Assembly: GCA_963769215.1 (NCBI GenBank)
Contig: CAVYKX010000029.1
Coordinates: 34,058-98,057 of the forward strand
Length of the DNA stretch: 64,000 bases
Source: Candidatus Sulfomarinibacteraceae bacterium
GTDB lineage: Bacteria; Acidobacteriota; Thermoanaerobaculia; Thermoanaerobaculales; Sulfomarinibacteraceae
Direction of reading: 5' to 3'
Position numbers and translations under genes: made by a program. Shown piece by piece: positions 6,640 to 49,795 of this stretch. Under the pieces are notes generated by a model. The model saw nothing but the letters and a program-made list of their open reading frames with translations. It was not told the DNA's origin and did not search any database. Position 1 is the first letter of the stretch. Each line of letters starts with the position of its first letter.

Positions 6640-7779
6640 CTATGCCTCCGCGATCGCGGTCAGGAAGTTGTCCCCGAGGACCTGCAGCCTCCAGCCCGTG
6701 AGACCTGCTTCGGCAAGATCATCGAGAGACGAGCACGGGGGTATGCTCGCAGCCACACTCTCTGCACAGCCCTTGGGGCAGAGTAATCCTGCCTGCAGGC
6801 CGAGAGCTTCGGCCTTTGCGTCACGGGCGGCCAGAACAGACTTGAGCCTGCGCCGCACCGCAGCTTCGGGTGCCGGAGTACGCTCCGGCCGAACCCGCTC
6901 GGGGGCTGATTTCGGCTTCTGGAGCAGACGAAGCAGATCTCGTCCCCAGCGCCGAACCGCGTGCGCGCCGACTCCATCGACCTTTCCGAGTGCATCGAGA
7001 TCTTCCGGCGGCTTCTGAGACATCGCGATGAGTGCCTGGTTGCCGAGAATTTTGAATGGGGGCACATCCTGAGAGCGCGCACGGCCCTCTCTCCACCCGT
7101 GAAGGGTAAATATCCGGTCGCGCTCTAATCCTCGGAGAGCCCGGGCGCCCTTGATGCGTTCAAAGGCCGCCGGATCAGGTTCTGACGAATTGTGGCGCAC
7201 AAGCTCCAGTTTCCCGAACTCCTCTTCAGCCCAAGAGAAACGACCCAGATCCTGGAGCCGTGCGCGGAGACGGACGGCGAGCGCCTCGAGGTAGGCGGTG
7301 TCGGCGGCGGCGTAGTCGATCTGCGCGGCTTTGAGCGGCCGTCTTCCCCAATCCGCCCTCTGGTAGCGCTTGTCAAGATGGACGTCCAACTCCTTTTCGA
7401 GGAGCGCCGCGAGACCCGTCTTTTCCTCTCCCAGAATCTGGGCCATGATCTGAGTGTCCACGAGTCCCCGCACCCTGGCCGCGTAGTCCCGGTCGAGCAC
7501 CCGGATGTCGTAATCCGCACCGTGCATGAAAACGGGAATCTCCGCATCGCCGACGACCGTCCATAACGGGTCGAGATCTGACGGGTCGAGAGCGAGCGGG
7601 TCGATGATCATGTGATGGTTGTCGGCCGTCAACTGAATCAGACAGACCTTGTGGAAGTAAGAATGCATCGAGTCGGCCTCGGTATCGAGAGCGAATCGGC
7701 CGGCGCGAGCACAGCGCTGCGCAGCGTCACGGACCCCTTCCGGTGTGTCGATCCAATGGGGACGAAGATCTTCGGACAT
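6640..7779 (-). CDS. rnd: ribonuclease D (3'-5' exonuclease + HRDC domain)
   Basis: 379 aa. DEDDy exonuclease motifs (ALDTEADSMHSY, MHGADYDIRVL, YAAADTAYL) with an HRDC-like C-terminal half. Confidence 0.85.
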   Translation of the reverse strand: MSEDLRPHWIDTPEGVRDAAQRCARAGRFALDTEADSMHSYFHKVCLIQLTADNHHMIIDPLALDPSDLDPLWTVVGDAEIPVFMHGADYDIRVLDRDYAARVRGLVDTQIMAQILGEEKTGLAALLEKELDVHLDKRYQRADWGRRPLKAAQIDYAAADTAYLEALAVRLRARLQDLGRFSWAEEEFGKLELVRHNSSEPDPAAFERIKGARALRGLERDRIFTLHGWREGRARSQDVPPFKILGNQALIAMSQKPPEDLDALGKVDGVGAHAVRRWGRDLLRLLQKPKSAPERVRPERTPAPEAAVRRRLKSVLAARDAKAEALGLQAGLLCPKGCAESVAASIPPCSSLDDLAEAGLTGWRLQVLGDNFLTAIAEA

Positions 7780-7806
7780 GGGTGGGGATGGTAGCAGAGT
7801 GCCGTT

Positions 7807-7866
7807 CCACCCTCCCGCCCATTTCGGAATTCTGAATTAGGAATTAGGAATGCCACCCGCCCACCC
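7807..7866. repeat. box + heptamer microsatellite module (C-box / AT-rich heptamers / C-box)
   Basis: CCACCCTCCCGCCC - atttcggaattctgaattaggaattaggaatg - CCACCCGCCCACCC. Confidence 0.85.
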
Positions 7867-7916
7867 GATACCCGATGGGTGGATTTCTCATCCTCGCTTC
7901 AACCAACGAGCCGTTG

Positions 7917-7990
7917 GCGGGCCCTGAAGGACCCGCCTACAAGAGGAGCGCGCTAGATTAACGTGTAGGCGCGTCCTTGAGGGCGTTCCA
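7917..7990. repeat. pair of inverted ~27 nt REP-like motifs
   Basis: ggcgggccctgaaggacccgcctacaag and, in inverse orientation, gtgtaggcgcgtccttgagggcgttcca. The first motif can itself form a 9 bp hairpin with one mismatch. Confidence 0.6.
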
Positions 7991-8047
7991 ACGTCAAGCA
8001 TGGCAGTCAACGACAACAACCGTTGAGTCGGTCTTTTTTGATTGAAC

Positions 8048-8096
8048 GGGTGGTGGGTTGGGAATTCCTAATTCCTCATTCCTACTTCCTCATTCG
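8048..8096. repeat. box + heptamer microsatellite module (G-box then AATTCCT-type heptamers), inverted relative to 7807-7866
   Basis: GGGTGGTGGGTTGGG followed by aattcctaattcctcattcctacttcctcattcg. Confidence 0.85.
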
Positions 8097-8115
8097 TTAT
8101 TGCTATTCTCTGCGT

Positions 8116-8974
8116 ATGGGCAAAGCAGAGTGGGGCGTCGATCCGGAGTTTTTCGGTCCGCGGCACGCACACCGTGAGGGTCGCATCACGGAGCGTTTGG
8201 AGCGTGTTGTTCCCGAGCCCGGTCTCCACCTCGAGTGTGCGGCAGGAGTCGGATCCCTGTCTCTCACGCTGGCGAAAAAAGGGACACACCGTTATCTCGG
8301 CTGATCGCTCGCTGCGCTCCCTCAGGGTGCTCGCCGCACGAGCCGCGTCGGCCGAGACGGCCGAAAGGGTCCTCCCGGTGGTTGCCGACATCACCGCTCT
8401 GCCGTTTTCCGACGGAGTTTTCTCGAGCGCCACCAGCGCGGAAACCCTGGAACATATCCCCGGCCACGAAGTTGCGGTCGCCCAGCTGGCTCGCGTGCTC
8501 GAGGAAGGAGGCTGGCTGATCGGCACGGTCCCGGCCGGACCACAACAATGGTCGGACTGGGACGCCTGGGCGGGTCACCTGAGGCGTTACTCACATGAAT
8601 CGATGGCTGTCCTTCTCGAGGGCGCCGGTCTCGACGCCGAGGTCGTTGTCTGGGGTTGGCCGATGCTGCGGCTGTACGACGACCTCTTTCTCAAGCGGAT
8701 CAACCGCCGCCGTTTGACTCAGCGAGGCTCTGTGGAGGATGACGCGACCTTGAACCGGATATCCAGTCTCGGCCGGCGCCGCCATCTCGTGGCCATCGTT
8801 CGATCCGTTTTCGGCTTCGACCGTCTCTTCGACGGTTCTCCATGGGGGGTTGGTTTGCTGTTTTCCGCTCAGAAAAAGGGCTCATCCGCGCGCGGGGAAG
8901 CCGCATTCGAGCGGCGCAACGGAGTTGATCGCGCTCTTCTGCAGAAGCGCTTCCCGCAAAGGAGCCACCTTTAG
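8116..8974 (+). pseudogene. class I SAM-dependent methyltransferase, frameshifted at an A-run
   Basis: N-terminal part (..LECAAGVGSLSLTLAKKG, SAM-binding GxGxG) is in frame 1 and the continuation (HTVISADRS..LPFSDGVFSS..LEHIP) is in frame 2. The switch is at A6 run 8275-8280. The 3' end of the ORF runs into a repeat element. Confidence 0.75.
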
Positions 8975-9046
8975 CATTGACCGACCAAAGGGTCAGGATT
9001 TTTTTTGCGGTAAGGCCCGGACAATGCAAAAGATGGCACCTCCGTC
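8927..9046 (-). repeat. inverted-repeat (MITE/REP-like) module, subfamily V1, reverse orientation
   Basis: Contains ggagccacctttagcattgaccg ... cggacaatgcaaaagatggcacctccg. Same arms as copies at 46841-46972 and 52423-52552. Confidence 0.8.
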
Positions 9047-9086
9047 GGGCGAGGGTCCGCGCCGAGATCCTTCAGATTCATGACAC

Positions 9087-9172
9087 GGGTGTGCGGGTGG
9101 GAATTCAAAAATAAGAACACAAAACTCAAAACTGATGCGGTGGGCGGGTGGCAATTCGGAATTCCGAATGGG
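9087..9172. repeat. double box + microsatellite module
   Basis: GGGTGTGCGGGTGGG - aattcaaaaataagaacacaaaactcaaaactgat - GCGGTGGGCGGGTGG - caattcggaattccgaatggg. Confidence 0.85.
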
Positions 9173-9189: not shown

Positions 9190-9915
9190 CTAACGTCGAC
9201 TCCTCAGCTCGTCACGCATCTCGGATGGAAGGTACTTCGAACCCTCACGGAAGGTCAGTCCTGACACCTCATTGAGATGCAGGTTGAGGAAATCGTACGC
9301 CAACTGCGGACGTTTCTTGCTCACGTCGCGCAACACCCAACCTATCGCCTTGCGGATGAAAAACTCTTTCTCCGAAACCATCGTCGATGCAAACGATGCG
9401 AAGAGTTCGAAATCACCGCCTCCGGCACGCAGGGCGGGTAAAAGAGAGAGCATCGAGGCACGGCGGATCCAGAAATCACCGTCGATCGACCAGCGACGCA
9501 GGATCGGCTCCGCAACATCCGGTTCGCGCTCTATCAGCGGTGCCGCGATCTTGGTGCACAACCAGTCCACCAGCGCCCAGGTGTGGCTGCGGCGAAGCAG
9601 ATTCTCGACCAGATCCAGATCGATGACCTCGAGCTGCTTCACACGCCGTTCCAACAAGGCCACCGCCACCGCTTTCATCTCGAAGATGGGCGTCGACCAC
9701 AGCGCATGTACGAGCTGGATCAACTCGTCCCGGTCCATCGAAGGGTGTTTTTCGAGGAATGTTCGCGCCACAGCGCGCAGTGGTTTGGCCCCCACACCAT
9801 AAAACTCGAGGTCGCTTTTCAGATATGCTTTCGCGCCAGTTGCGCGCTCATCGTCATGCACAGCCCACAGCGCCGTCCTGAGTTCCTCTGCATGGCGAAG
9901 AGCATCGGTCTCCAC
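9190..9915 (-). CDS. DNA alkylation repair protein (AlkD-like HEAT-repeat family)
   Basis: 241 aa, all-helical, with hallmark stretches YLKSDLEFYGVGAKPLR, WALVDWL, FFIRKAIGWVLRD. Confidence 0.75.
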   Translation of the reverse strand: METDALRHAEELRTALWAVHDDERATGAKAYLKSDLEFYGVGAKPLRAVARTFLEKHPSMDRDELIQLVHALWSTPIFEMKAVAVALLERRVKQLEVIDLDLVENLLRRSHTWALVDWLCTKIAAPLIEREPDVAEPILRRWSIDGDFWIRRASMLSLLPALRAGGGDFELFASFASTMVSEKEFFIRKAIGWVLRDVSKKRPQLAYDFLNLHLNEVSGLTFREGSKYLPSEMRDELRSRR

Positions 9916-9943: not shown

Positions 9944-11129
9944 TCACCTTGAGTTCCTTGCCGACCCTTTCGAAGGCTGCCACAGCTCTGTCAAGGTGCT
10001 CTTTCTCGTGGGCAGCGGATATCTGAACCCGGATCCTCGCCTGATCCGCGAGGCACCACCGGGAAACTGAAGCCGATGACGTAAATACCCTCTTCGAGCA
10101 TTGCGTCCGCGACCTGAGATGGCGAGGCGAGCGTCGTAGAGCATCACCGGCACGATCGCAGTTTCGCCATCGAGAACGTCGTAGCCGACCTTCGAGAGCT
10201 TGTCGCGGAAGTACCGGGTGTTCTCCATGAGTTTGTCCCGGAGAGCTGTCGTTGAAGACAGCATTCGAAAAACCTCGAGGCCGGCTGCGGCCAGGGACGG
10301 TGTCAGCGTATTCGAAAAAAGATAGGGGCGCGATCGCTGGCGCAGCAGGTCGATGATCTCTCGCCGGCCCGTTGTGTAGCCTCCGGAAGCGCCGCCAAGG
10401 GCCTTGCCCAGGGTCGACGTGATGATATCGACGCGACCCTGCACGCCACAGTGTTCGGGCGTTCCGCGGCCGGTGCGGCCGATATAGCCGGTGGCGTGGG
10501 AGTCATCGACCATCACCATGGCGTTGTACCGATCCGCGAGATCGCAGATTTCGTCGAGCTTGACCAGGTAGCCGTCCATGGAGAAGACGCCATCGGTGGC
10601 GATCAATCGCCGCCGGTGGTCCTGCGTCTTCTTGAGGATCGCCTCGAGCTCGTCCATGTCGGAGTTGGTATAACGGTATCGTTCGGCTTTGCACAAGCGA
10701 ATACCGTCGATGATCGAGGCATGGTTGAGCTGGTCGGAGATGATCGCGTCCTCGGCGCCGAGGAGGGTCTCGAAGAGTCCCGCATTGGCGTCGAAACACG
10801 ACGAGTAGAGGATCGTGTCATCGGTCCCGTTGAACTCGGCTGATCACCTCCTCGAGCTCCTTGTGCAAATCCTGCGTTCCGCAGATGAACCGCACCGAAG
10901 CCATGCCGAAGCCTCGCTGGTCGAGGGCCTCTTTGGCTTTGGCGATGATCTCCTGATTGTCGGCCAGACCGAGGTAGTTGTTGGCGCAGAAGTTGAGCAC
11001 TTCGCCCTGAGGCACGCTGATCGCCGCGCTCTGCGGCGACGAGATAACGCGCTCCTGCTTAAAGGTTCCCGCCTCTCGGATTCCTTCAAGCTCATCGCGG
11101 AATCCCGCCCGAAAGGTGTCAAACATCAT
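9944..11129 (-). pseudogene. kbl: glycine C-acetyltransferase (2-amino-3-ketobutyrate CoA ligase), about 3 frame disruptions
   Basis: Close collinearity with E. coli Kbl ([61 protein letters not shown]). Shifts lie near 10820-10850, about 10125 and about 10040. The restored tail reads [34 protein letters not shown]. Confidence 0.85.
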
Positions 11130-11219: not shown

Positions 11220-11564
11220 TCAGTTTGGATCAAAGCTCGCGACTGCTTCAGCCTCGTCGTCAAAGACTTCGAGCAGCGGCAACAACTGAGTCAATTTCAG
11301 CGTCCGCTCGACCTGGGGGGCCGGACGAAGCAGCTTGACGGACGCTCCGAATCGTCCCGCCAGTTTCCACCCGGACACCACCTCTCCGATACCGGAGCTG
11401 TCGATGATGGTGACTTTCCTCAGATTGAGGAGGATCTTCTTCCAATCCTCGGCCACCAGCTCATTCATCACATCTCGCAGGAGTTCATCCCCCACGCCCA
11501 TCACCAAACGCCCCTCGATATCAACAATGATGACGTCGTCCACGTGCCGTACATCGACTTTCAT
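11220..11564 (-). CDS. STAS-domain anti-sigma-factor antagonist (SpoIIAA-like)
   Basis: About 114 aa from MKVDVRHVDDVIIVDIEGRL.. with IIDSSGIGEVV phosphorylation-loop-like motif. The longer ORF upstream of Met45 runs through repeats. Confidence 0.7.
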   Translation of the reverse strand: MKVDVRHVDDVIIVDIEGRLVMGVGDELLRDVMNELVAEDWKKILLNLRKVTIIDSSGIGEVVSGWKLAGRFGASVKLLRPAPQVERTLKLTQLLPLLEVFDDEAEAVASFDPN

Positions 11565-11580
11565 GGGCGGTATTCTACCA

Positions 11581-11816
11581 TCCACCCTCCCACGCAGCCG
11601 CAAGATGCAGGATGCAAAGATCCGCCCCCCACCCAGGAGAAACCGCAGATAACGCAGATGAACGCAGATTGTCGGAATTACACCGGCAGGATCCATCCAC
11701 CCGGAAAAGGGTCGCGGTACCCCGGTTCTTCATCTCGAATCTCGAATCTCGAATCTCGAATCTTGTATCTTGAATCTCGTATCTTGAATCTTGTATCTGG
11801 TGGGGTGGGTGGGTGG
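11581..11816. repeat. composite box/microsatellite tract
   Basis: C-box; gcaagat/gcaggat units; C-box; three ACGCAGATnn decamers (11641-11672); about 9 heptamers gaatctc/gtatctt (11731-11798); G-box GGTGGGGTGGGTGGGTGG abutting the stop of the downstream gene. Confidence 0.85.
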
Positions 11817-13049
11817 CTATCTGGTTTGCACGGGGTTCAGACCGGTCTCGTCGGCTCGATAGACCTGGTTCCGGCCGCCCTGCTTGGCTCGGTACAGCGC
11901 TTCGTCGGCGACACGCAGCAGTTCCACGGAATCGAGGGCATCATCCGGGAAACACGCGACGCCCCCACTGATGGTCACTCGGCCCAGCGGCTGCGTTGCT
12001 TCACCCTCGAACGGGAACTCCTCGATCCGCTTGCGGACCATCCCGGCCGCCGTCATCGCCTGCACCCCGGAGCGTCCCGGCATCACGAGCAGAAACTCCT
12101 CGCCCCCAAACCGCCCGAAGACATCGTCCGTGCGGACTGTTTCTTTGACCAGCTTCGCCAGCTGCGCAAGCAGCGTGTCGCCCATCAGATGGCCGTTCGT
12201 GTCGTTATAGACCTTGAAGTTGTCAAGATCGAAGATGAAAACCGAAGCTTTACCGCCGGTTTTGCGCGCTTCGTGAATGGCCAGCCCGAGACGGCGCAGC
12301 AGGGCGCCCTTGTTGAAAATCCCGGTCAACTTGTCGACCTCGGCCTCGACCTCTTTTGCCCGATAGGCCTCCACGTTCTTCCACGTCAGCGCGCCGATGC
12401 GCGCGATCATCTCGAGAACATCGCGCTCGGTGTTGTGGTGGCGATCGGGACGCGAGACGGCGAGCACACCAAGCGTCTTCTCGCCAGCCACCATCGGGGC
12501 GATGATGTCGTACTTCGGTTCGGAACTGACTCGGGACCGTTCGTAGTTCCACATCTGGTCCTGCTCGAAATCCTTCCGCACCATCACCTGCTGTCGGTCG
12601 GCAACGATCCCGACCTGGCCCTCGCCAATGCGAAACTCCGCGCCCTCTCTCAACATGCCCCTGGTCGAATGGAGCGCGGCGACCGACAGGCGGTCGGCCT
12701 CGTCCGAATGCGAATCCGGAGTCGATCGTCGCACCAGAACGGCTGCGACCTCCGGGCGATAGATTCTGACCATCGCTTTGAGAAGCGCCTTTGGAATCAT
12801 GCGGACCTGGCGCTCTTTGTGCATTTCGCCGAGAAGCGATGCAAAGACCTGGAAAAATTCGCGCTGAAAATCGAGGTCGTTTTCGAGACGCCGGAATTTT
12901 CGGTCGGACGCCTCTCTGACTTCCTTGATTTCTTTTTCCGCCGCGCGTCGGGCCACGGAATTCCGAATCAGCAGCATCAGGACAGCCGCCAGCAGCAGGA
13001 CCAGGGCAGGCACCAAAAATAGAGCGATGCTGCCGAGGGGAGTGCTCAA
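11817..13049 (-). CDS. diguanylate cyclase (N-terminal TM helix, GAF-like domain, GGDEF domain)
   Basis: 410 aa. DKLTGIFNKGA.., FDLDNFKVYND, active-site GGEEF, RAKQGGRNQV. Confidence 0.85.
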   Translation of the reverse strand: MSTPLGSIALFLVPALVLLLAAVLMLLIRNSVARRAAEKEIKEVREASDRKFRRLENDLDFQREFFQVFASLLGEMHKERQVRMIPKALLKAMVRIYRPEVAAVLVRRSTPDSHSDEADRLSVAALHSTRGMLREGAEFRIGEGQVGIVADRQQVMVRKDFEQDQMWNYERSRVSSEPKYDIIAPMVAGEKTLGVLAVSRPDRHHNTERDVLEMIARIGALTWKNVEAYRAKEVEAEVDKLTGIFNKGALLRRLGLAIHEARKTGGKASVFIFDLDNFKVYNDTNGHLMGDTLLAQLAKLVKETVRTDDVFGRFGGEEFLLVMPGRSGVQAMTAAGMVRKRIEEFPFEGEATQPLGRVTISGGVACFPDDALDSVELLRVADEALYRAKQGGRNQVYRADETGLNPVQTR

Positions 13050-15328: not shown

Positions 15329-15350
15329 GAGAGTAACTATAGCGGGTCTC

Positions 15351-15493
15351 TCCCACCCACCCAGACGCCGGATGCCGGAGCGAATTCATCGATCGGCAGG
15401 TCCAGTTGTCAAGCAGATTCTGATCGTATCTGGTATCTGGGCGGACGGGTGGCTGGGCGGATCCGGTATCTGGGATCTGGGTGGGTGGCCGGG
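15351..15493. repeat. box + microsatellite tract
   Basis: CCCACCCACCCA; gccggat/gccggag units; gtatctg-type heptamers; G-boxes GCGGACGGGTGGCTGGGCGG and GTGGGTGGCCGGG. Confidence 0.8.
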
Positions 15494-15547
15494 TATACTG
15501 CACACGCGCGCAATCGAGCATTTTTTGCGCATATCAAAGGAGGGACA

Positions 15548-16883: not shown

Positions 16884-16930
16884 AATTTCGGATTTCGGAT
16901 TTCGGATTTCGAATTTGCCCCCGCCCACCC
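16884..16930 (+). repeat. heptamer microsatellite (ATTTCGG)n + C-box
   Basis: aaatttcggatttcggatttcggatttcgaatttg followed by CCCCCGCCCACCC. Same subfamily as 17809, 46753 and 62637. Confidence 0.9.
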
Positions 16931-16947
16931 GGGCGGGGGTTGTTCTT
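16918..16947 (+). terminator. rho-independent terminator after the TlpA-like gene
   Basis: Perfect 9 bp GC stem CCCCCGCCC-accc-GGGCGGGGG followed by ttgttcttc. Confidence 0.6.
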
Positions 16948-17050
16948 CGGTACCCGCCCCGTCATTTCGTCATCTCAACTTTCAAACTTCCCGACGTTTC
17001 AACGTCAGGTTCATCCGGAATTGCATGAGATGAGCCGAAATATGGAGTGT

Positions 17051-17253
17051 CTCCAACCACCCACCCAAACACCTTGAACCACGAAGGCTCGAAGGACACG
17101 AAGAACTCACAAAGGTTTTCTCAATGTTTTCCTGACTCATCAGAAGGGCGAACTCTGAAAACGTGGAAATTCCTGCCTCCGCGAACGCTCGTGAGGTGAT
17201 GGGCCAAGAAACTCCTTTGTGTTCCCTTGGTGTCTTTGTGACTTCGTGGTTGC
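17051..17253. repeat. C-box plus inverted pair of CGAAGG-type microsatellites flanking about 100 bp
   Basis: ccaaccacccaccc. Left arm gaaccacgaaggctcgaaggacacgaagaactcacaaagg (17076-17115) and right arm cctttgtgttcccttggtgtctttgtgacttcgtggttgc (17214-17253) are imperfect reverse complements. Confidence 0.7.
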
Positions 17254-17808: not shown

Positions 17809-17897
17809 AATTTCGATTAATTTCGGATTTCGGATTTCCGCCCTCCCGCTCACCGGAACAAGGCTTGAGGCGTGAGGCCTGGGGCTTGTGGGGCTCC
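17809..17897 (+). repeat. heptamer microsatellite + C-box, then degenerate (GGCTTGR)5
   Basis: tttcgattaatttcggatttcggatttcc-GCCCTCCCGC, then ggcttgaggcgtgaggcctggggcttgtggggctc, related to the array at 48763-48903. Confidence 0.8.
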
Positions 17898-17919: not shown

Positions 17920-18138
17920 CCGCAGAAGAGCACGTCCGGCGGAGGTGCCGTCTTCTGCATTGTCCGAATCGAAACGCCCAAAAAGAACCACGCGGTACAT
18001 CGCCCGCAGAAGAGCGCGCTCCTCGGAGCGTGCCAGTTTTCGCATTGTCCGGAGAGGCAAATTCAAGTAAATCGATCGGTCGGATCGGACAATGCGAAGG
18101 CTGGCAACTCTCGGGAAGCGCGTCTGCAGAAGGGCGCC
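17920..18138 (+). repeat. inverted-repeat module V1, about 1.5 copies
   Basis: CAGAAGAGCACG + left arm (ggaggtgccgtcttctgcattgtccg), then CAGAAGAGCGCG + second left arm (cgtgccagttttcgcattgtccg), then right arm cggacaatgcgaaggctggca + GGGAAGCGCG..CAGAAGGGCGCC. Confidence 0.8.
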
Positions 18139-18204
18139 TTGAGGACCGGCCGCCTCGAATCCGCAGCTCTCGTGATCCGACGGGGACGTCGGGACGGAAC
18201 GTGT

Positions 18205-18442
18205 TTACTCGAGCTCCGAGAACGTCGACGACCCGCCCCGGAAACCGATCGAGACCCGTTCGTGATCGGCAACGACCGGCAGGCGGTGTTCCCAGCTCAG
18301 ATCCCGCAGGCGATCCATCTCCTGCGGCTCCCGGCTGAGGTTGATCTCCCGATAGGCGACGCCCCGGCGATCGAAATCTGCGCACAGCTCGCGGCAGTGG
18401 GGACAGCCGTCGGCGGTGAAGACGAGGATGGTGTCGAGGGAC

Positions 18443-18453
<11 letters not shown>
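18205..18453 (-). CDS. glutaredoxin-family small redox protein (CPHC)
   Basis: ILVFTADGCPHCRELCADFDRRGVAYREINL..LPVV.. is a glutaredoxin/NrdH-like fold. The start is uncertain (GTG 18453 proposed) because the upstream part of the ORF is made of repeat sequence. Confidence 0.6.
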
Positions 18454-18581
<128 letters not shown>

Positions 18582-18584
18582 CAT

Positions 18585-19530
18585 TCATCGATTCTCGCGA
18601 AGATCATCATAATGCCCGCTGAGATCAGCGGTGCCGGGTTCCATCTCGATCAAGACACTCGGGTCGTCCCGCCACCGCGGGTGGACTTTGACCCTGAGCC
18701 CGAGATAGATCCTGATACCGAGCACCCTCTCGAGCTCCTCACGGGCCGCCTGACCCACCGACCGGATCATGCTGCCCACCCTTGCCGATGACGATGCCCT
18801 TCTGGCTCTTCCGCTCGACGTAGATCACGGCCTCGACGTGGAGCAGGTCGCTCGCTCTCCTCGAAGAGATCGACGACCACGCCGGTTGTGTAGGGAGCTC
18901 GTTCCGCGTCCTCTCGAGCAGCTTTTCGCGAACCACTTCGGCAACAAAGAACCGTTCGGTCTGGGTCGTTGTAGGTCCGTGGGATACAGCGGCGGACCCT
19001 CGGGAAGGCGGCGCGAACAACTCACCCATGAGACCCGAGGCCGTCACCCTTGAGCGCCGAGATCGGGACAACGGGAGTATCGGCGCGGCGCTGCGAGTAG
19101 CGCTCGATGAGACGGCAGCAAGATCCCCCTTGGCGCTTGACGAGATCGATTTTGGTCAGCACCCCGACGACCGTCGGCCTGCACGGACTCGAGGAGCTCG
19201 AAGAGGATAGTCCTCGCCGCCACCCCACGGTTCCGACGCGTCGAGGAGGTGGAGCACGACGTCGACCTCTTCGAGGGCGGATCGCACTTCCTGCATCATC
19301 CGAGCATTCATCTTGTGCAGGGGTTTGTGGACTCCGGGCAGGTCGAAGAAGACCGCCTGGCCGCGCTCCTCGGAGAGGATGCCGACGATCCGGTTGCGGG
19401 TGGTCTGGGGTTTGTCGGAGACGATGGCGATCTTGTCGCCGATCAGCGCGTTGAGCAGCGTGCTCTTGCCGGCGTTCGGCCGGCCGACGAGGGCGACCAT
19501 GCCGGAGCGAAGGCCGTTCCCGCGATCCAT
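18585..19530 (-). pseudogene. era: GTPase Era, at least 3 frame disruptions
   Basis: N-terminal piece has [26 protein letters not shown]. The middle (TKIDLV) and KH-domain pieces (VREKLLERTRNELP, IVIGKGG, LGLRVKVHPRWRDD) lie in other frames (ORFs 19156-19530, 19022-19228, 18739-19071, 18585-18779). Confidence 0.85.
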
Positions 19531-20789
<1,259 letters not shown>

Positions 20790-20793
<4 letters not shown>

Positions 20794-21222
20794 GAAAACA
20801 TCTCCTCCCGCATCTGCAGCTCGAGTCGCGTTCATTTCTCCTCGATCTCTCGCATGATCATATCCGAGAAGATGGAGCATTCCATGAAGCACCAGCTCCT
20901 CGAGATCTCGCGGACCTCGCCATGACCCAGGCTCTTCAGCCTGCCGTCGGGCGGCGTCGAGCGAAATGACGATCTCGCCCAGCAGCACCCGACGCCGGAC
21001 GGCAGCTCGTCGCCGTCGGGAAACGACAGGACGTCGGTCGCTCGATCCTGCTCCGCGATAACGCCGGTTGAGCTCGCGAATCCGTTCATCCCCGGTGAAC
21101 AGAACATGGACCTCCGCAGCCTCGCCCGCAGTCGATCCAAGCAGCTTCGAAATCACCCGACGCAGCGCTTCAGCGGTTGGCTGGGACGGTCTTCTCTCCC
21201 ACCTGAAGTGGACCCGAGTCAG
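20790..21222 (-). pseudogene. ybeY: endoribonuclease YbeY, at least 2 frame disruptions; start uncertain
   Basis: ELNRRYRG / DRATDVLSFP (other frame) / HGMLHLLGYDH zinc motif. The likely true stop is a TGA overlapping the corC ATG (ATGA at 20790-20793) in a shifted frame. Confidence 0.75.
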
Positions 21223-23510
21223 CTTTCTCTGCCTCCGGTTGAAGTCGAAACCCGGATAGTCGATTCGGTGATGATACATGTTGGTCAGCACCCACAGAAA
21301 GGCCGACGCCACCTTGTCGAGCTCCGAAAACGTGAGTTCGCGAATCGTCGAGTTGATCGTCCTCGAGCGCGTTCGAAAAGATCCTGTCGATCATCGCCTG
21401 GATCTTGGTCGGCGTCGGGTTGTCGAGGTCCGCGCCGCCGCCTCCACCGCGTCGGCAAGCAGCAGGATGCCCATCTCCTTGGTGTTGGGGCTCGGTCCTG
21501 GGTAGCGGTAGTCGCTCTCGCGCACCTCCTGATTTCTCGGGTCGCTTTCTTTCCTGGGCCTTGTTGAAGAAGTAGCGAATCAGCTTGGTGCCGTGATGGG
21601 TGGCGATGGCCTGCCGGATCGGCAGCGGGAGCTTTGCCTCGCGGGCCATCTCCAGACCCTCTTTGACGTGACTCTGGATCACCAGGGCGGACATCGATGG
21701 CGCAAGAGCAGTCGTGCGGATTGCCGCCGCGCTGATTCTCGACGAAGTACTCCGGCTTCACCAGCTTGCCGACGTCGTGGTAGTAGGCGCACACCCGCAG
21801 CAGCAGGGCAGTTGGCGCCGACGGCGTCGGCGCCGGCCTCGGCGAGATTGCCGACCGCCAGCGAGTGTTGATAGGTGCCCGGCGCCTCCAGGGACAGGCG
21901 TTTGAGAAGCGGCAGGTTCTGGTTGCGAGAGCTCGAGCAGCCGGGTGTCGGTGGTGATCCCGAAAAGACTCTCGAGGACCGGAAGCAGGAAGGACACGAC
22001 GCCCACGCGACAGGAATCCGCCCACCATCGCGCAACCGGCAGCAAAGCAACACGATCGACGGAGTTTCCGGAAGGCCGCGATAAAGCCCAGAATCAGCAT
22101 CAGGGCCACGTTCGCTCCACCGACGATAACGCCCACGCGGCTCAGTGACGGCCCGGTCCTTGGAGCGTTCAGCGGCGAGGGTCGCCGACCATCCCGAGGC
22201 CAGAGCGTAGACCGCGATCGAGAAATCGCCCCCCAGCAACACCCCGGCAATGCCCGCTGTGCAAACCGCAAAAAGCAGCGCGGGCTGGAATCCCATGAGC
22301 ATCATCACGGTCGAGCGGGCCGGCGGCGAACGGCAGGCCCCAGAGGTACGCTTCCACGGTTGACATAGCAGGCCCCTGGGCATTGAATGCGATGGCATCG
22401 CAAGGTACAGACCCAGCCGATTCGCCAGGGCGAAGACCAGGACCAGGATGTAGATCATCGACAGGCGGCGCCGCGCTTCGACGGGCTGCTGAGGCGTTCA
22501 CCAGACGGCCACCACCCGAGGATCAGCAATGCGACAACCAAGCCTATCCCTGCAACTCTCGCCGTCGTCGCGGTGTCTTGCCGCTGCCGCTGAAAGACCC
22601 GCAGGGTTTCCGCCACCTCCTCGGTGACCGTATCCCCCCGCCGGACAAGAACCTGCCCGCGCCTGAGGTTGCGGGATCTCGGGACCACCTTCTCGGCGGC
22701 CGCGCGGGTCCGCTCGCCGGTTTCCGCACGATTAAAAACGAGATTGGGCGAAATATTGGCCTCGAGAAAATCCGACCGTCGTCTTGATCCATCGGCGCGC
22801 AACCGCCGGCTGCTCGAGAAGCCGTCGCCTGCAGCAACCTGCTCGAGACCCGAACGCACATCGATCACTGCGGAGAGTTCGTTCAGCAGAACCAGCCGTT
22901 CGGCGCCCGAGTCCAAATTCCGTAACGCCACGCCCCGCGTACGCCCGGCGCTCGAGGTCGCGGCGGTCATCGGCGATCCGATCCCTGAAGACCTGTGCTC
23001 ACCACCTCGACCAAAGCCGCTCGAGCCGATCAGAGCATGCCAGACGACTCGAGAATGCGGGCAATCGGATCCGGTATCGCGAAGATCGGTGATGGCGCCG
23101 AGGCTCGCGACCGCATCTTCACCGAACTCCAGTCGGTCCCGGCACGCCGCGAACAGGATCGTAGAACTCTTCTTCGAGCTCCATCTCGCAGACGCGGTTC
23201 GAGATCGTAGACCGGGATAACCGAATCGCGAGCCTCATTGCTCGCTGTCTCTGTCGCCGACTCATCGGGCAGCGTCAGGTCCGACGGGATCACGACGTCG
23301 AAGGTGGCGACATCACCCGGTTGCCAGTCCGGCGGGCCGCTGCCGAGTCGAGGCAGCAGCAAACCACGTACATCCCACGATCGTAATCACCGCCCACAGG
23401 ACGGTATGATCCAGAAGGCCGTCCCACCAGCCGGCGCTCTCCTCGAGACCCCGCTGGATGCGGGTGCCCGAGGCCTTCGCGTCACCCTTGGGAGAACCGT
23501 TGGATTTCAT
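21219..23510 (-). pseudogene. 7TM-receptor HD-domain phosphohydrolase (PgpH/YqfF family), many frame disruptions
   Basis: Collinear fragments in all three frames: N-terminal anchor MKSNG..VLWAVITIVG, extracellular part (GDVATFDVVIPSDL.., VIPVYD), 7TM region, HD domain ([21 protein letters not shown]), and C-terminus NMYHHRIDYP. Confidence 0.75.
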
Positions 23511-26924: not shown

Positions 26925-26987
26925 CCGTTTCTGCGCCCGTACGGTCGAGATCTATTCGCGCTCGTCGCGACGATCGTGCCCGAGTCC

Positions 26988-27021
26988 TTCGTTCAAACGT
27001 TAGAACGTTCCGACGTTTTCG
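26988..27021. repeat. AACGTT-containing short tandem repeats
   Basis: ttcgttcaaacgttagaacgttccgacgttttcg. Related tracts occur at 16962-17010 and 28488-28523. Confidence 0.7.
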
Positions 27022-28487: not shown

Positions 28488-28523
28488 CAACGTTTCAACG
28501 TTTAAACGTTCAACGTTGCGTTC
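28488..28523. repeat. AACGTT octamer tandem repeat between convergent genes
   Basis: caacgtttcaacgtttaaacgttcaacgttgcgttc. Contains the 14 nt perfect palindrome aacgtttaaacgtt, bracketed by ccgagc/gctcgg. Confidence 0.8.
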
Positions 28524-33436: not shown

Positions 33437-33491
33437 GTCCACAGTGTACCGATTCAATCGCGCTGTTCTGCGGATGCGTTCCCGCGAAGTT

Positions 33492-33600
33492 GCCACCCTT
33501 GACGATCTGACCGACCCGAGCCCTCACGACTTAGTTGCGTTGACTCCCAAAATCGTCAAAGATGGCACGCCCGACCAACGCGCTCTCCTGCGGGCGCCTT
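33492..33600 (-). repeat. inverted-repeat module, subfamily V2
   Basis: cccTTGACGATctg ... cccaaaATCGTCAAagatggcacgcccgaccaacgcgctctcctgcgg. Aligns with the reverse complement of 62783-62896. Confidence 0.8.
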
Positions 33601-33621
33601 GCTGAAATCCTTCGGGTTCAT

Positions 33622-33728
33622 GGGCGTGTGGGTGGAATCCCCTTTCTCCTTTTCTCCTTTTCTTCTTTTCAAGTACGGGCGGGTGGGCGGAAATCCAAAA
33701 TCTAAATTCCAAAATCTGAAATTTTCTC
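33622..33728. repeat. double box + microsatellite module
   Basis: GGGCGTGTGGGTGG - ctttctcc/ttttctcc units - GGGCGGGTGGGCGG - aaatccaaaatctaaattccaaaatctgaaatttt. Same layout as 9087-9172. Confidence 0.85.
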
Positions 33729-33786
33729 GGCCTACCTCACGGGACGCTGGATGGGCCAAATGTTGTCAATCGATTAGTATGGGTTC

Positions 33787-37461: not shown

Positions 37462-37575
37462 GAATTCTCAGTTCTCAATTCTTCATTCTCAAATCCCTGC
37501 CACCCTCCCATGAGATGGAGGATTGCCGGCAATTCAAAATTGAGAATTCAGAACAGGGATGGACTGGGAGGCTGG
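37462..37575. repeat. box + microsatellite tract
   Basis: gaattctcagttctcaattcttcattctcaaat - CCCTGCCACCCTCCC - .. aattcaaaattgagaattcagaac - agggatggactgggaggctgg. Confidence 0.8.
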
Positions 37576-37738
37576 ACGTTTCGGTTTCACAGCTCCCGAG
37601 ATCTTTGCCCTCAGAGGCACACGTACAGCTTGGACCGCCACATGATCCGCGGAGGCTGCGCCCGGTGAAAAGGACGCCCATGGCCATCAACAGGATGGCG
37701 ATCAGGAAAAGAGCGAAGGTCAATACGAGAGTCTGCAT
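37475..37738 (-). CDS. nqrM: (Na+)-NQR maturation protein NqrM; 3' end runs into repeat sequence
   Basis: Single TM helix followed by GSCGGPSCTC, compared with the NqrM/DUF539 motif GSCGG..C.C. It sits directly after apbE at the end of the nqr locus. Confidence 0.7.
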   Translation of the reverse strand: MQTLVLTFALFLIAILLMAMGVLFTGRSLRGSCGGPSCTCASEGKDLGSCETETSSLPVHPCSEFSILNCRQSSISWEGGRDLRMKN

Positions 37739-37746
37739 GATCTACC

Positions 37747-38832
37747 TTAGTGAACCCCGGAATCGCCGCCAGTATTCTCGACCAACGCCGTCCAAACGCG
37801 GGTTGGTCTTTCCTCAAATCCGCCTTCTGCGGTGCGGAGGAGGAAAAGGGCTGGAATCTCGAGCCGTTCGGCCAGGGCCACGCCCTCCTCGGGACCGAGC
37901 ACCTCGAATGCCGTCGCGAGCGCGTCCGCAGTCATGCAGCTCGCATGAATCACCGAAACCGAAGCCAGATTGTGGGAGATTGGATATCCGGTGCGTGGAT
38001 CGATGGTGTGAGAAATCCGCCGGCCATCACGGATGACAAAATTCCGGTAATCGCCGGAAGTGGCGAGCGCCAGATTGGCGAGCGGGATCGCCAACTGAAC
38101 TGTCCGGCCGCCAACTTCCGGCCGCTCGATACCGATCCGCCACACCTCTGCCGGCGCCGTTCCGGCCGTGACACCGCACTTCGCCGCCCACTTCGACCAT
38201 GAAGTCGGCAAACCCTCTGCTTCGAGAAGTCCGCAACTTCGTCAACGGCGAAACCCTTGGCGATCGCAGAAAGATCGATCCGACAGTCCGACCTCGCCTT
38301 GCGGAGAACTCGGTCCTCGACATCGACCGAGAGCTGCTCGTAGCCTGTGAGGGCCACGAGTTCTTCGAGCGCCTGATCATCGGGCGCCTCGGTGGGACCC
38401 AGAAGGCCCGAAGCCCCACATATCCACCAACGGTCCAACCGTGATGTCAAAGGCTCCCGAGGTGAGACGAGCCACTCTCTGTGCTTCGGCGACGACCTCG
38501 ACGAAATCTGCCGAGGCCTCGAAGGTCTCCGTACCGGACCGGTTGAACCTCTCGATCTCGGAGTCGGTCTTGTAGGTGGACATCGCGAAATCCACGCCGT
38601 CCAAGACCCCCTGCACCTGCTGCCCGAGCGGTCCTTTCGCCGCCTCATCGAAGCCCTCCGGCACCACCTTGACCGTGTACGTGGTGCCCATGGTCGCCCC
38701 CTTCAACACCCAAACGTCGGCCTCCACCGGCGTCGGCGGTTGGCGAAAGAACACGACCGCGAAAAGGCCGGCTACGAACAGGCCCGGCACAATCAGCCTT
38801 CTGAGCGACGGAGTAGATTTTGAAGGGGGCAT
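37747..38832 (-). pseudogene. apbE: FAD:protein FMN transferase ApbE, at least 2 frame disruptions
   Basis: [70 protein letters not shown], spread over three ORF fragments in different frames. Confidence 0.8.
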
Positions 38833-38856
38833 TCCGGCCCTCCTGGTTTCCAGGCT

Positions 38857-40086
38857 TTATCCGCCGAAATCGTCGAGCATGATGTTCTCGGGCTCGACGC
38901 CGAGGTCGAGGAGCATGTTGATGACCGCCTGGTTCATCATCGGCGGCCCGCACATGTAGTACTCGACGTCTTCGGGCGCCGGGTGGTCCTTGAGGTACTT
39001 GTCGAGCACCACCTGGTGGATGAAGCCGGTGTGGCCGTCCCAGTTGTCTTCGGGCAGCGGCTCCGAGAGCGCCAGGTGCCACTCGAAGTTGTCGTTCTCG
39101 GCCTGCGATGCGTCGAAGTCCTCCTCGTAGAACGCCTCGCGCAGGCTGCGGGCGCCGTACCAGAAGGAGACCTTGCGGTCGGTGTGGAGGCGCTTGAACT
39201 GGTCGAAGATGTGCGAGCGCATGGGCGCCATGCCGGCGCCGCCGCCGATGAAGACCATCTCGTTGTCGGTCTCCCGGGCAAAGAACTCGCCGAAGGGCCC
39301 GGAGATGGTGACCTCGTCGCCGGGCTTGAGGTTGAAGATGTAGGACGACATGATGCCCGGCGGCACATCCGGCATGTTCGGCGGCGGCGAGGCGATGCGG
39401 ACGTTGAGCATGATGATGCCCTTCTCCTCCGGGTAGTTGGCCATCGAGTAGGCGCGGCTGACCGGCTCGTCGACCTTCGAGACGAAGCGCCACAGGTCGA
39501 ACTTGTCCCAGTCCTCGCGGTACTCGTCCTCGATGTCGAAGTCCGTGTAGTCGCACGTCGTGCGGCGGGCACTCGATCTGGATGTAGCCGCCGGCGCGGA
39601 ACGGCACCTCTTCGCCCTCGGGCAGCTCGAGCACCAGCTCCTTGATGAAGGTGGCCACGTTGTGGTTCGAGCGCACCTGTGCAATGTCCACTTGCGGACG
39701 CTGAAGATCTCCGGCTCGATCTCGATCTTCATGTCCTGCTTGACCTTGACCTGGCAGGACAGCCGAGCACCCTCGCGGGCCTCGCCGCGGCTGATGTGCG
39801 ACGTCTCGGTCGGCAGCAGTGCGCCGCCGCCCTCGTGCACGTCGACCTTGCAGACCCCGCAGGTGCCCTTGCCGCCGCAGGCCGAGGGGATGAAGATCTT
39901 GCTGCGCCGAAAGCGTATTGAGCAGGGTGTCGCCGGCGGCCGTGACGATCGCCTTGTCGGGGTCGTCGTTGATGGTGATCGTCACGTCGCCCGACGGCAC
40001 CAGCTTCGCCTTGGCGACATGAGCACCACCACCAGGGCCACGATCACGACGACGAAGACGACAACTCCGAGGATGATAGTCAACAT
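38857..40086 (-). pseudogene. nqrF: Na+-translocating NADH:quinone oxidoreductase subunit F, at least 4 frame disruptions, all in the 5' ~560 nt
   Basis: TM anchor; 2Fe-2S region ([14 protein letters not shown] implied across frames); FAD/NAD domain intact from about 39540 ([38 protein letters not shown]). Confidence 0.85.
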
Positions 40087-40098
40087 CGATTCACCTAC

Positions 40099-40713: not shown

Positions 40714-40714
40714 C

Positions 40715-42132: not shown

Positions 42133-42138
42133 TGCGCG

Positions 42139-46126: not shown

Positions 46127-46162
46127 CTCGAGATACGTCAGATACTCGAGATACGTCAGATA
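46127..46162. repeat. exact 18 bp tandem duplication
   Basis: ctcgagatacgtcagata x2 between the two DUF4136 paralogs. Confidence 0.9.
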
Positions 46163-46180
46163 CCGGAGAGGAAGAGACTC

Positions 46181-48761: not shown

Positions 48762-48762
48762 A

Positions 48763-48949: not shown

Positions 48950-48971
48950 TACCTGCTAAAGTGCGGCCCCA

Positions 48972-49712: not shown

Positions 49713-49795
49713 GCGGCGGTTGTGAAAAATGCCCTTCTCAGCGGATATTTCTGTATTATGTGGCACGAGCGTTAGCGATCGGTGGAGGTGGAGTC

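Follow-up and report, generated by a model that had tools for sequence, protein, structure and literature searches.

We report here that the intergenic DNA of an uncultured sediment bacterium, a Candidatus Sulfomarinibacteraceae bacterium (Acidobacteriota; assembly GCA_963769215.1, contig CAVYKX010000029.1, positions 34,058 to 98,057) carries a family of composite microsatellites. The stretch that was analyzed, 64,000 nucleotides (nt) in length, is called the window, and coordinates given without a genome label are positions in it. Each module of the family joins a short series of G-triplets, the box (G-box on the G-rich strand, C-box on its complement), to a tandem array of heptamers. We are highly confident that the modules form a clade-specific family which builds polar, often palindromic structures between genes. 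With distinctly less than even confidence we infer that these structures may serve as boundary or terminator (insulator) hairpins between transcription units; the explanation as a whole, composite family plus boundary role, comes only a little short of an even balance. Three regularities go beyond a preliminary description of the same sequence, namely polarity with respect to gene ends, locus-specific pairing of arms, and placement against the extended -10 element of putatively leaderless genes.

A module consists of a (GGGN)3-4 tract abutting a tandem array, usually of 2-10 units, of an A/T-rich heptamer. The typical box reads G3-N-G3-N-G3-N-G2; among the 24 intergenic boxes, four G3 runs were found in one, three in 13, and two in eight. 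The preliminary description had taken the box as a constant anchor beside a changing microsatellite. This was not so, since the box is a tetranucleotide repeat in its own right, a short (GGGN)3-4 tract that varies in sequence and length, and boxes were scored as repeats by Tandem Repeats Finder (TRF; CCAC x4.8 at 18442-18460, CCCACCCG x2 at 52329-52344). The claim that the heptamer differs from locus to locus was borne out, though most units vary one theme. Read toward the C-box, this majority theme was A(A/T)TTC(G/C)G (AATTCGG, ATTTCGG, AATTAGG, GATTTCA, AGATTCG), and a minority of units (GGATGCC, GGCTTGR, TTTCTCC, GTATCTG) lay off it. The heptamers ran head to tail in 2.1-20.4 copies (TRF), units such as AATTCGG, ATTTCGG, AATTCCT, and ATCTCGA contained no G3 run, and the array usually ended at the box with A(A/T)TT and without a gap. 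At one locus a unit can persist across species, as shown by GAATGAG/GAATTAG in the window and in the relative L085.

All 16 loci listed in the preliminary description held the content ascribed to them, and 15 combined a box with a period-7 array; the other, 17051-17075, had a 10-nt array and no heptamer. According to TRF, the period-7 arrays at these loci comprised 2.1-8.6 copies, to which an AGGCTTG x20.4 array at 48762-48901 is added. Two arrays were weak: CAAAACT at 9105-9133 reached 68% matches, and TTTCTCC at 33643-33670 was assigned period 8 by TRF (TTTCTCCT). The word GGGTGGG occurred 33 times in the window, compared with 10.6 +/- 3.1 in shuffled sequences. Intergenic DNA made up 11.3% of the window in the curated gene map and contained 14 of the 15 lag-7 arrays, which were dispersed from 7.8 to 62.7 kb, together with 19 of the 26 strict boxes. 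When the intergenic DNA was concatenated, 18 boxes were counted against 1.08 +/- 0.98 expected under a Markov model. The doubt whether boxes and microsatellites are associated beyond chance was settled at the scale of the window: a strict box lay within 12 nt of 9 of the 15 arrays, whereas 2.24 were expected when arrays were re-placed at random within intergenic DNA, and none of 5000 such permutations reached 9. Array density was 2.34 per 10 kb, 23-fold higher than the 0.10 per 10 kb found in 1.27 Mb of unrelated bacterial loci.

The preliminary description had also allowed that the tracts might vanish on re-assembly; they did not collapse in independent assemblies. Logan short-read contigs of several sediment metagenomes crossed the arrays with unique flanks on both sides (X1 over 48858-50000 without gaps; X4, X5, and X7 over 11640-12955), and the same box and array architecture was present in five other assemblies. 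Most short-read contigs nevertheless ended at modules. Word depth at modules was 100-6000x compared with 3-8x in flanking genes in every metagenome tested, indicating that module words are massively repeated in the sampled communities; these depths sum over many related genomes per sample and do not give copies per genome. Contig joints showed many further loci built as an arm, about 35 nt, and a second arm. Short-read assemblies of abundant sediment Acidobacteriota are broken by the repeats, with contigs stopping at modules.

Near-identical sequence was found in about 20 metagenome runs from sediment, soil, and estuary. RNase D had hundreds of homologs at 65-84% identity, two of which bear the NCBI names 'Acidobacteria' and 'Acidobacteriota bacterium'; matches of PEPCK among GTDB genomes were at most 65% identical, came from many phyla, and were not syntenic. 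Gene order around RNase D was kept in L082 (84% RNase D protein identity), L083/L084 (69%), and L085, L086, and L087 (66-68%), and L082, L083, L085, L086, and L087 were used as the five syntenic relatives for comparing modules. A metagenome scan for (GGATTTC)3 detected arrays in many habitats, on contigs whose G+C content spanned 32-70%; only 3 of 188 were coupled to a box, and exceptions such as L154 and L142 carried the same composites as the window. Box coupling amounted to 9 of 15 arrays in the window, 9 of 15 in the relatives, which were counted separately, and 0 of 13 at unrelated loci. Heptamer arrays alone are widespread, and it is their combination with a box that characterizes this clade. 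The metagenome contigs L088-L167 carried (GGATTTC)n of 3-5 units, often beside GCGGATT, CCGCAAT, or GGGATTT arrays, and GGATTNC-type heptamers seem to be widely over-represented.

Orientation, pairing, and promoter context of the modules

On the plus strand, C-boxes lay to the left and G-boxes to the right within intergenic regions (Mann-Whitney p = 0.005). Near 5' gene ends, 11 of 12 boxes were G-type in the sense direction, and near 3' ends 10 of 12 were C-type. In the window, 21 of 24 boxes followed the rule that the G strand points toward the nearest gene end (binomial 2.8e-4, Fisher 0.0027); in the five syntenic relatives 37 of 46 did so (Fisher 3e-5), and four of the nine exceptions there belonged to a different feature, a CCATCCCCACCC that is conserved in the stretch separating the -10 element of RNase D from its ATG. 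Polarity tracked gene orientation and not one DNA strand: the stops of plus-strand genes were accompanied by C on the plus strand, those of minus-strand genes by G. Because box orientation is fixed in this way, the order along every intergenic region is 5' C-box ... G-box 3', whichever strand is read.

About half of the modules are inverted pairs, in which the arms, box and heptamers together, are complementary over 25-47 nt. Such arms would be predicted to fold as long hairpins or cruciforms. The best pair, 18467-18513/18534-18580, matched at 89% over 47 nt (z -8.2); other pairs in the window included 15353-15379/15462-15488 (27 nt, 85%) and 57010-57057/57116-57163 (48 nt, 75%, z -3.7). Comparable pairs were present in L085 (9865-9911/9931-9977, 47 nt, 85%), L087 (2463-2506/2548-2591, 44 nt, 77%), and L083 (3145-3173/3273-3301, 29 nt, 90%). 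Against dinucleotide shuffles, the fold z of module-bearing intergenic regions averaged about -3.7 with a minimum of -8.1, compared with about 0 for module-free regions, and individual pairs calculated with DNA parameters gave z values of -8.2, -9.6, -4.1, -3.7, and -3.4. In six of seven loci the best match of an arm was its own partner (diagonal mean 18.7, off-diagonal 6.8). The arms between RNase D and the methyltransferase gene were CCAGTAG/TACTGGT in L087 and GAATGAG/CATTCCT in L085 and the window, and those between the GGDEF and STAS genes were AGATACA/TGCATCT. From locus to locus and from species to species the unit drifts or gives way to another, while the two arms of one locus stay matched.

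Gene-start regions fell into two exclusive classes, with either a Shine-Dalgarno (SD) sequence, GGAG, at -7 to -14 or an SD-less TAnnnT hexamer, often within TGnTAnnnT, that ended 6-9 nt before the ATG. SD-less starts were located at 7779(-), 8117, 11564(-), 15328(-), 25305(-), 33787, and 48972, and also occurred in L083 and L085-L087. Judged by this layout, the TAnnnT class suggests that many genes of this lineage may be leaderless and use extended -10 promoters. A G-type module stood directly upstream of the -10 element in 6 of 7 putatively leaderless genes and in 2 of 17 SD-led genes (Fisher 0.0013). The spacing between box and -10 element varied from 0 to about 75 nt, and one ortholog has no module, so the box is not a fixed promoter element; on the same grounds, L086 keeping its STAS promoter without a box, we rejected the G-box as a -35-like element. 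The candidate gene starts 'TTCATG' beside several G-boxes were likewise rejected, since alignment placed TTCATG inside a repeated element.

At the other end of genes, 16917-16940 was the top terminator-like site in 7-19 kb, with the box forming the 5' arm of a canonical intrinsic-terminator hairpin. A stem with a 3-8 nt loop and a T-tract after the stop codon was present at 16917-16950 and in L085 and L086, and most other pairs were long-looped and had no T-tract. The layout of stop codon, heptamers, CCCCCNCCC/GGGNGGGGG, and TTTTT recurred in L085 and L086, so that stop-(heptamer)4-CCCCCNCCC/GGGNGGGGG-T-tract marked the 3' end of the AhpC-like gene in all three genomes covering it. Both kinds of canonical signal were scarce: consensus sigma-70 promoter-like sites numbered 0-1 compared with about 3 expected, and 4 terminator-like sites were detected compared with 14.4 expected in 44.5-63.5 kb.

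Modules persisted at orthologous positions. Upstream of RNase D a module was found in all six genomes, with ctgcTACCAT-N8-ATG conserved and the upstream units and their arrangement differing. The GGDEF-STAS region showed C-box and heptamers followed by heptamers, G-box, and TAGAAT in four of five genomes, and regions free of modules mostly stayed so, the phytase-GGDEF region having no box module in any genome compared. The preliminary description had proposed unit homogenization by slippage or conversion and had suggested looking for unit-number polymorphism in reads. Direct evidence for slippage-type dynamics was obtained: the (ATCTCGA)n array at 11732 was exactly 14 nt, or two units, shorter in contigs of three runs, and in two runs a 33-nt segment between GGTATCTGGG direct repeats, including the inner G-box of the module at 15426-15493, was missing. 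Whole units are thus gained or lost between strains, and the arrays could be used as strain markers. An 18-nt tandem repeat, CTCGAGATACGTCAGATA x2.1 at 46127-46163, had one unit fewer in 4/4 runs examined.

A proposed boundary function and competing explanations

The reading that we favor is that modules mark and insulate the boundaries of transcription units. A transcript running past a stop codon would bear the heptamers and the C-box; with a G-box following, the GC-rich boxes would pair at the apex of a hairpin whose base the AU-richer heptamers would lengthen. The resulting stem might act as a terminator or protect the 3' end, as the textbook stem and T-tract after the AhpC-like gene in three species would illustrate. 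The G-type arm would come to lie immediately before the next promoter, often an extended -10 element (TGnTAnnnT) 6-9 nt from a leaderless ATG, and because an extended -10 element needs no -35 element, the space upstream is free for a module. RNA polymerase leaving a gene in either direction would transcribe the C arm first, with the G tract on the template, an order that may favor hairpin folding over G-rich RNA structures. We prefer this reading because of the location of modules between a stop codon and the next promoter, the terminator conserved in three species, the strong fold signals, the persistence at orthologous regions, and the C-first polarity on both strands.

Several observations weigh against it. 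Most pairs are without a U-tract, and several modules are solitary. Modules of the same polarity also occupy the divergent regions 7780-8116, 15329-15547, 33443-33786, and 62438-63128, where no read-through transcript is expected, so that an RNA hairpin cannot be the whole story. In L086 the module upstream of the STAS gene is absent, yet TAGAAT, the 7-nt spacing, and the ATG are kept, implying that modules are dispensable at least at this promoter. In L082, at 84% identity, the region between the DNA-alkylation-repair and methyltransferase genes is 58 nt long and module-free, compared with 215 nt with modules in the window. Finally, when arm mismatches were inspected for an RNA signature, no G.U bias was found (8 of sense G.U type, 9 antisense, 18 other); without an RNA-specific signature, arm complementarity could stem from the origin of the arms or from conversion at the DNA level instead of from selection.

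A more far-reaching form of the boundary reading, which we consider clearly improbable, would make the modules a genome-wide polar system, a microsatellite-built insulator code in which each transcription unit is bracketed by inward-pointing modules. The G tract on the template strand and the C-first hairpin would jointly stop RNA polymerase in either direction, cruciforms would absorb transcription-generated supercoils between back-to-back leaderless promoters, and conversion within the palindrome would keep the arms complementary while leaving the unit sequence free to drift.

The main rival of the boundary function is a purely mutational or selfish origin. The first alternative to be considered, which we judge unlikely though to be taken seriously, is that the modules are a non-functional by-product of a lineage-specific mutational regime, with polarity and pairing as footprints of the mechanism. 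The polymerase would slip on units of 4, 7, 8, and 10 nt, fold-back template switching would copy an array into an inverted arm, and arrays and palindromes would keep arising wherever selection tolerates them, that is, in intergenic DNA. The whole-unit polymorphisms between strains are in line with this, as are the arm mismatches without G.U bias, the modules missing at orthologous sites in L086 (STAS) and L082 (DNA-alkylation/methyltransferase), the lone (GGATTTC)n arrays common in unrelated metagenome contigs of 32-70% GC, and the many other short-period arrays that occupy these intergenic regions and occur in relatives (10-mers, AACGTT 8-mers, GGGAWC hexamers, and AGCTATC and CCAGTAG heptamers). 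The over-representation of heptamers in bacteria has been attributed to polymerase slippage (PMC4692102). However, slippage does not predict a strict gene-end polarity replicated in relatives; the same intergenic regions keep modules at 66-70% protein identity while neighboring regions are free of them, and box-array coupling is absent from arrays in other lineages (0/13, 3/188).

A mobile or formerly mobile origin appears more doubtful still. Box and heptamers would then be the terminal part of larger dispersed composites, non-autonomous elements resembling transposable elements of the miniature inverted-repeat type (MITEs) or doublets of repetitive extragenic palindromic (REP) sequences (REPINs). 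The excess of word depth at modules (100-6000x against 3-8x in flanking genes) and the many arm - ~35 nt - arm loci at contig joints point in this direction. So do the nearly identical composites ATTTCC-C-box-GGAGAAAC(CGCAGATNNA)3 at 11621, at 46779, and in the unrelated JGI contig L154; the C-box that precedes 6/6 copies of a ~150-nt hairpin element in one orientation; the REP doublet between the modules at 7807-8096; and the differences in presence among close relatives. Against mobility, inspection by eye revealed neither target-site duplications nor defined termini at any module, the units and their number are specific to the locus and not copies of a master, orthologous positions are kept over large divergence, and the word depth sums many genomes.

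The preliminary description had noted that boxes with three to four G-runs could form G-quadruplexes (G4). Regulatory G4 or i-motif switches at promoters, a reading also put forward for the heptamer repeats of Xanthomonas and Nostoc, are, in our judgment, very unlikely. The boxes are indeed (GGGN)n tracts with 1-nt loops, whose G strand, directly before many promoters, is the non-template one, and GGGAATC and GGGGAYT repeats form G4 and i-motifs in vitro (PMC4692102). G-run boxes therefore exist as described, but since just one of the 24 intergenic boxes has four G3 runs, a single box can usually not form a canonical three-tetrad G4. Moreover, the distance to the -10 element ranges from 0 to about 75 nt, boxes also stand at 3' gene ends, a nearby complementary arm favors duplex or hairpin, and the STAS promoter of L086 is boxless.

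Even less credit is given to Rho utilization (rut) tracts, in which the C-box and the pyrimidine-containing heptamers of a 3' untranslated region would load Rho. The strand that the preliminary description had proposed for a rut-like tract was right, 10 of the 12 boxes nearest 3' gene ends being C-type in the sense RNA, and over much of the window canonical intrinsic terminators are few. On the other side, the C tract covers just 10-18 nt, and the G-poor part of that proposal failed, as the adjoining heptamers (GGAUUUC, AAUUCGG) have G equal to or above C. Modules are also equally present upstream of promoters in divergent regions, where there is no mRNA. Periodic YC dinucleotides for Rho loading were rejected, because the heptamers are not richer in C than in G and the 10-mers are poor in YC steps.

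Hardly any weight remains for an assembly artefact of low-complexity sequence, to which the split genes and 1-nt differences from short-read contigs at 18232-18972 might point but which is already refuted by the independent contigs across arrays and boxes and by the five other assemblies, or for phase-variable contingency loci, since the neighbors are housekeeping genes (RNase D, PEPCK, queC, dus, mtnA) and the arrays lie upstream of -10 elements or past stop codons, outside reading frames and -35/-10 spacers.

Modules and accompanying repeats along the window

The window has 59-67% G+C, and scans of it with Rfam (gathering thresholds) and for tRNAs gave no matches. Its genes are ordinary housekeeping genes, encoding RNase D, a methyltransferase, a DNA-alkylation repair protein, a GGDEF protein, STAS, and mtnA, as well as PEPCK, TauE, queC, dus, feoAB, urocanase, and the nqr operon. 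Conserved genes split by frameshifts were noted in the aminotransferase gene (9944-11129), the era-corC-ybeY region (18620-23290), and nqr (37700-43340); aminotransferase, era, corC, ybeY, 7TM-HD, nqr subunits, and apbE were each divided into several open reading frames (ORFs). The window differed from short-read contigs by 1-nt indels at 18232, 18238, 18774, 18847, 18892, and 18972. Split genes and indels are probably homopolymer-type single-base assembly errors rather than pseudogenes, and these errors are without effect on the box and heptamer repeats.

Between the RNase D gene (6640-7779, minus strand) and the methyltransferase gene (8117-8974), two modules face each other as described previously, with arms 7826-7854/8061-8089 complementary at 83% over 29 nt. 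The left arm, 7807-7866, is oriented on the minus strand, where it reads G-box GGGTGGGCGGGTGG, the units CATTCCT/AATTCCT/AATTCAG/AATTCCG, G-box GGGCGGGAGGGTGG, 13 nt, TACCAT, 8 nt, and the ATG of RNase D. The right module, 8048-8096 on the plus strand, has G-box GGGTGGTGGGTTGGG and (AATTCCT)4.7, an array that merges into TGcTATTCT, 6 nt, and the ATG of the methyltransferase gene. The unstranded REP-like doublet between the two, 7912-7993, has heads (GTAGGCG..GTCCTT..AGGGC) facing each other; its arms, 7912-7941/7964-7993, are complementary at 83% over 30 nt, with the GTAG heads GTAGGCGGGTCCTTCAGGGCCCGCC and GTAGGCGCGTCCTTGAGGGCGTTCC. With a word depth of up to 2344x compared with about 5x, the doublet is a separate REPIN-like high-copy family.

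The plus-strand module at 9087-9172 contains two G-boxes, GGAATTC units, and the CAAAACT array, which is weak; seen from the minus strand, the module is C-type and comes right after the stop of the DNA-alkylation-repair gene (9190-9915, minus strand), followed by a copy of the ~150-nt hairpin element. Upstream of the STAS gene (11220-11564, minus strand), the minus-strand module 11578-11634 has C-boxes on the plus strand flanking GCATCCT/GCATCTT heptamers; it is G-type in the STAS sense, and its box adjoins TAGAAT, 7 nt, and ATG. Joined to a C-box of this module is an unstranded 10-nt periodic array, (CGCAGATNNA)x2.7 at 11635-11669, which contains the most repeated words of the region and the highest depth seen (1600-2700x). 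On the plus strand at 11732-11816, (ATCTCGA/ATCTTGT)x9.6 and G-box GGTGGGGTGGGTGGGTGG come right after the stop of the GGDEF gene (11817-13013, minus strand).

Upstream of mtnA, the minus-strand module 15351-15385 pairs C-box CCCACCCACCC with GCCGGAT units, reading G-box, 9 nt, TATAGT, 7 nt, and ATG in the mtnA sense. The plus-strand module before the gene at 15548 (15426-15493) has (GTATCTG)n, an inner G-box, (GGATCTG)n, and G-box GGGTGGGTGGCCGGG, which abuts TATACT. Right after the stop of the AhpC-like gene, the minus-strand module 16884-16950 consists of (ATTTCGG)4.6, GCCCCCGCCC-ACCC-GGGCGGGGG, and TTGTTCTTC. At 17051-17075 (minus strand), the locus without a heptamer array, a C-box is followed by a 10-nt periodic array whose inverted partner lies at 17214-17251. 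After the stop of the gene with an RF-1 domain, (ATTTCGG)2.7 and a C-box (17809-17850, minus strand) are followed by GGCTTGA-like units and the hairpin element.

The best palindrome stands between era and the glutaredoxin gene. Its left arm, 18442-18514 on the minus strand, comprises a C-box, (AATTCGG)4.7, and a C-box, and its right arm, 18534-18581 on the plus strand, G-box GGGGGGCGGGGG and (AATTCCG)4.6. The glutaredoxin ORF at 18205-18588(-) and its counterpart L086:145-489 are overextended through the heptamer and G-box module ('EFRIPNSEF...'), the conserved protein starting at about 18453; arrays of this kind inflate ORF predictions.

Further to the right, the plus-strand module 33622-33728 comprises a G-box, the TTTCTCC(T) array, G-box GGGCGGGTGGGCGG, and AAATCCA/AAATCTA units upstream of a candidate leaderless macro-domain gene (TAGTAT, 6 nt, ATG at 33787). 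A weak, unstranded pair at 37462-37575 has (AATTCTC)n and a C-box after the dus stop, then (AATTCAG)n and a weak G-box. After the stop of the DUF4136 gene, the minus-strand module 46714-46792 shows a C-box, (CCGGATG)3.6, (ATTTCGG)3.7, and a C-box, and downstream of it come GGAGAAAC(CGCAGATNNA)3 and the hairpin element. Between PEPCK and TauE (48762-48949, plus strand), (AGGCTTG/GGGCTTG)x20.4 after the PEPCK stop is joined by G-box GGGTGGGTG and (ATTCCGA)3.6 upstream of TAAAGT, 9 nt, and the ATG of the TauE gene. The GGCTTGA-type unit of 48762-48901 recurs after a C-box at 17855-17890, and its complement is found in a relative (L086:16350-16385).

At the 3' end of the radical-SAM gene, (GAATTCG)4.6 and C-box CCCACCCGCCCACCC (52293-52343, minus strand) are followed by a 10-mer array and the hairpin element; CCCACCCGCCCACCC is the sole one of the 24 intergenic boxes with four G3 runs. 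The unstranded composite upstream of queC, 57021-57191, reads (GGATTTC/AGATTTC)n with a C-box, a 37-nt spacer, and a G-box with (GAAATCT/AAATCC)n, the G-box side being the complementary arm; next come GGGCGG and (CATTCCT)n upstream of queC. In the divergent region between feoA and urocanase, (GGATTTC)4 and C-box CCACCCACCCGCCCCC (62637-62680, minus strand) are followed by a 10-mer-like array and the hairpin element. In the long feoA leader, 62470-62530(-), an inverted segment rich in A/T (gcatattgttcgcaatttcaatcacaatcggataacattc) looks similar to a Fur-box region.

The ~150-nt hairpin element was found at 46836-46992(+), 52408-52562(+), 17990-18150(+), 62793-62960(+), 8912-9062(-), and 33470-33620(-). 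Its core, GGAGGTGCCATCTTTTGCATTGTCCGA ... TCGGTCAATGCGAAAGGTGGCTCC, is flanked by CGCAGAAGAGCGCG-like boxes, and its stem of about 20 bp shows compensatory changes in 10 of 31 predicted pairs, with the variant arm TTGACGAT/ATCGTCAA in two copies. A C-box of matching orientation, in most cases accompanied by heptamers, stands before each copy; the copies themselves run in the sense of the neighboring gene and have high word depth in metagenomes. The element could be a structured RNA or a MITE. Arrays of 10-nt units (CGCAGATNNA, CCCAGATNNA, CACAGAGNNN, ACGAAGNNNN) stand right after C-boxes at 11635-11669, 46796-46829, 52344-52383, 62681-62720, and 17076-17115; they form an inverted pair at 17077-17251, and similar pairs occur in L085 (14330-14440) and L087 (13620-13700). 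AACGTT-containing 8-mers and GGGAWC/GGGGAC hexamers were noted at 28488-28517, 26985-27010, 47037-47058, and 63070-63097, and hexamers form an inverted pair (CCCGTA.../...GGGAAC) at L083:14890-15045.

Comparison with known repeats

In the literature searched, we found no earlier description of a box and heptamer family in Acidobacteria. Rho-independent terminators, including bidirectional or 'I-shaped' ones, place a GC-rich stem right after the stop codon. The box pair and T-tract at 16917-16950 and in its orthologs resemble them, whereas most module pairs have loops of 20-180 nt, no U-tract, and stems to which the heptamers add 20-35 nt, and pairs also stand where nothing needs terminating. 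The REP, bacterial interspersed mosaic element (BIME), and REPIN sequences of proteobacteria are high-copy intergenic palindromic mosaics, assembled from motifs whose orientation alternates and often located between a stop codon and the next promoter, for which roles in termination, mRNA stabilization, and supercoil handling have been proposed. REPs are fixed imperfect palindromes of 20-40 nt with a GTAG head; the modules, in contrast, are headless and have repetitive, locus-specific arms, and in the window only the separate doublet at 7912-7993 shows the REP/BIME palindrome. By analogy, REP/BIME elements may be regarded as a functional counterpart of the modules.

Two groups of tandem heptamers are more distant analogs than the Xanthomonas and Nostoc repeats discussed below. 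In Calothrix, short tandemly repeated repetitive (STRR) sequences, as reported by Mazel and colleagues in 1990, are said to comprise several tandem heptamer families in one genome, intergenic in location. The family described here shares these two traits, but the STRR units are unrelated in sequence, and no G/C box, fixed polarity, or systematic arm pairing has been described for them. The STRR heptanucleotide repeats of Calothrix PCC 7601 are also mentioned in PMC4692102. TAACTGA direct repeats occur in marine Beggiatoaceae, cyanobacteria, and Bacteroidetes (MacGregor 2015, PMC4679880); they have a single fixed unit a few nt upstream of start codons, with a proposed translational role, are almost never inverted, and are boxless.

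We rate the intergenic heptamer repeats of Xanthomonas, (GGGAATC)n, and Nostoc/Anabaena, (GGGGAYT)n, as the closest described case and the present family as a variant of such repeats. They consist of 2-26 units, are about 90% intergenic, and number hundreds per genome (Rehm et al. 2015, PMC4692102). Many form inverted pairs able to fold into stem-loops or cruciforms next to housekeeping genes, and the same gene pairs carry them in related species with varying length and sequence (PMC4692102). Tandem heptamers, intergenic bias, inverted pairs, conserved sites of variable length, and housekeeping neighbors are thus common to both, and the Xanthomonas unit GGGAATC resembles GGAATTC and GGATTTC of the window. 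Xanthomonas and Nostoc, however, have a G3 or G4 run in every unit, prefer four units, and use one unit type per genome, whereas here the G runs stand in a separate box and many locus-specific units co-vary between the arms of each locus. The G-rich strand of their repeats is non-coding on the upstream side of genes and coding on the downstream side, in convergent pairs (PMC4692102). The polarity of the present family is the opposite, the coding strand carrying G upstream of genes and C downstream of them, and the phylum differs too. That intergenic heptamer repeats are over-represented in cyanobacteria, Xanthomonas, and Beggiatoaceae has been recognized for decades. To these, this lineage adds a separate G tract, a gene-end polarity replicated in relatives, and arms that co-vary locus by locus, which the earlier cases do not have or show in another form. 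The three regularities narrow the hypotheses to two, a boundary function exerted by hairpins or cruciforms and a mutational mechanism that is directional.

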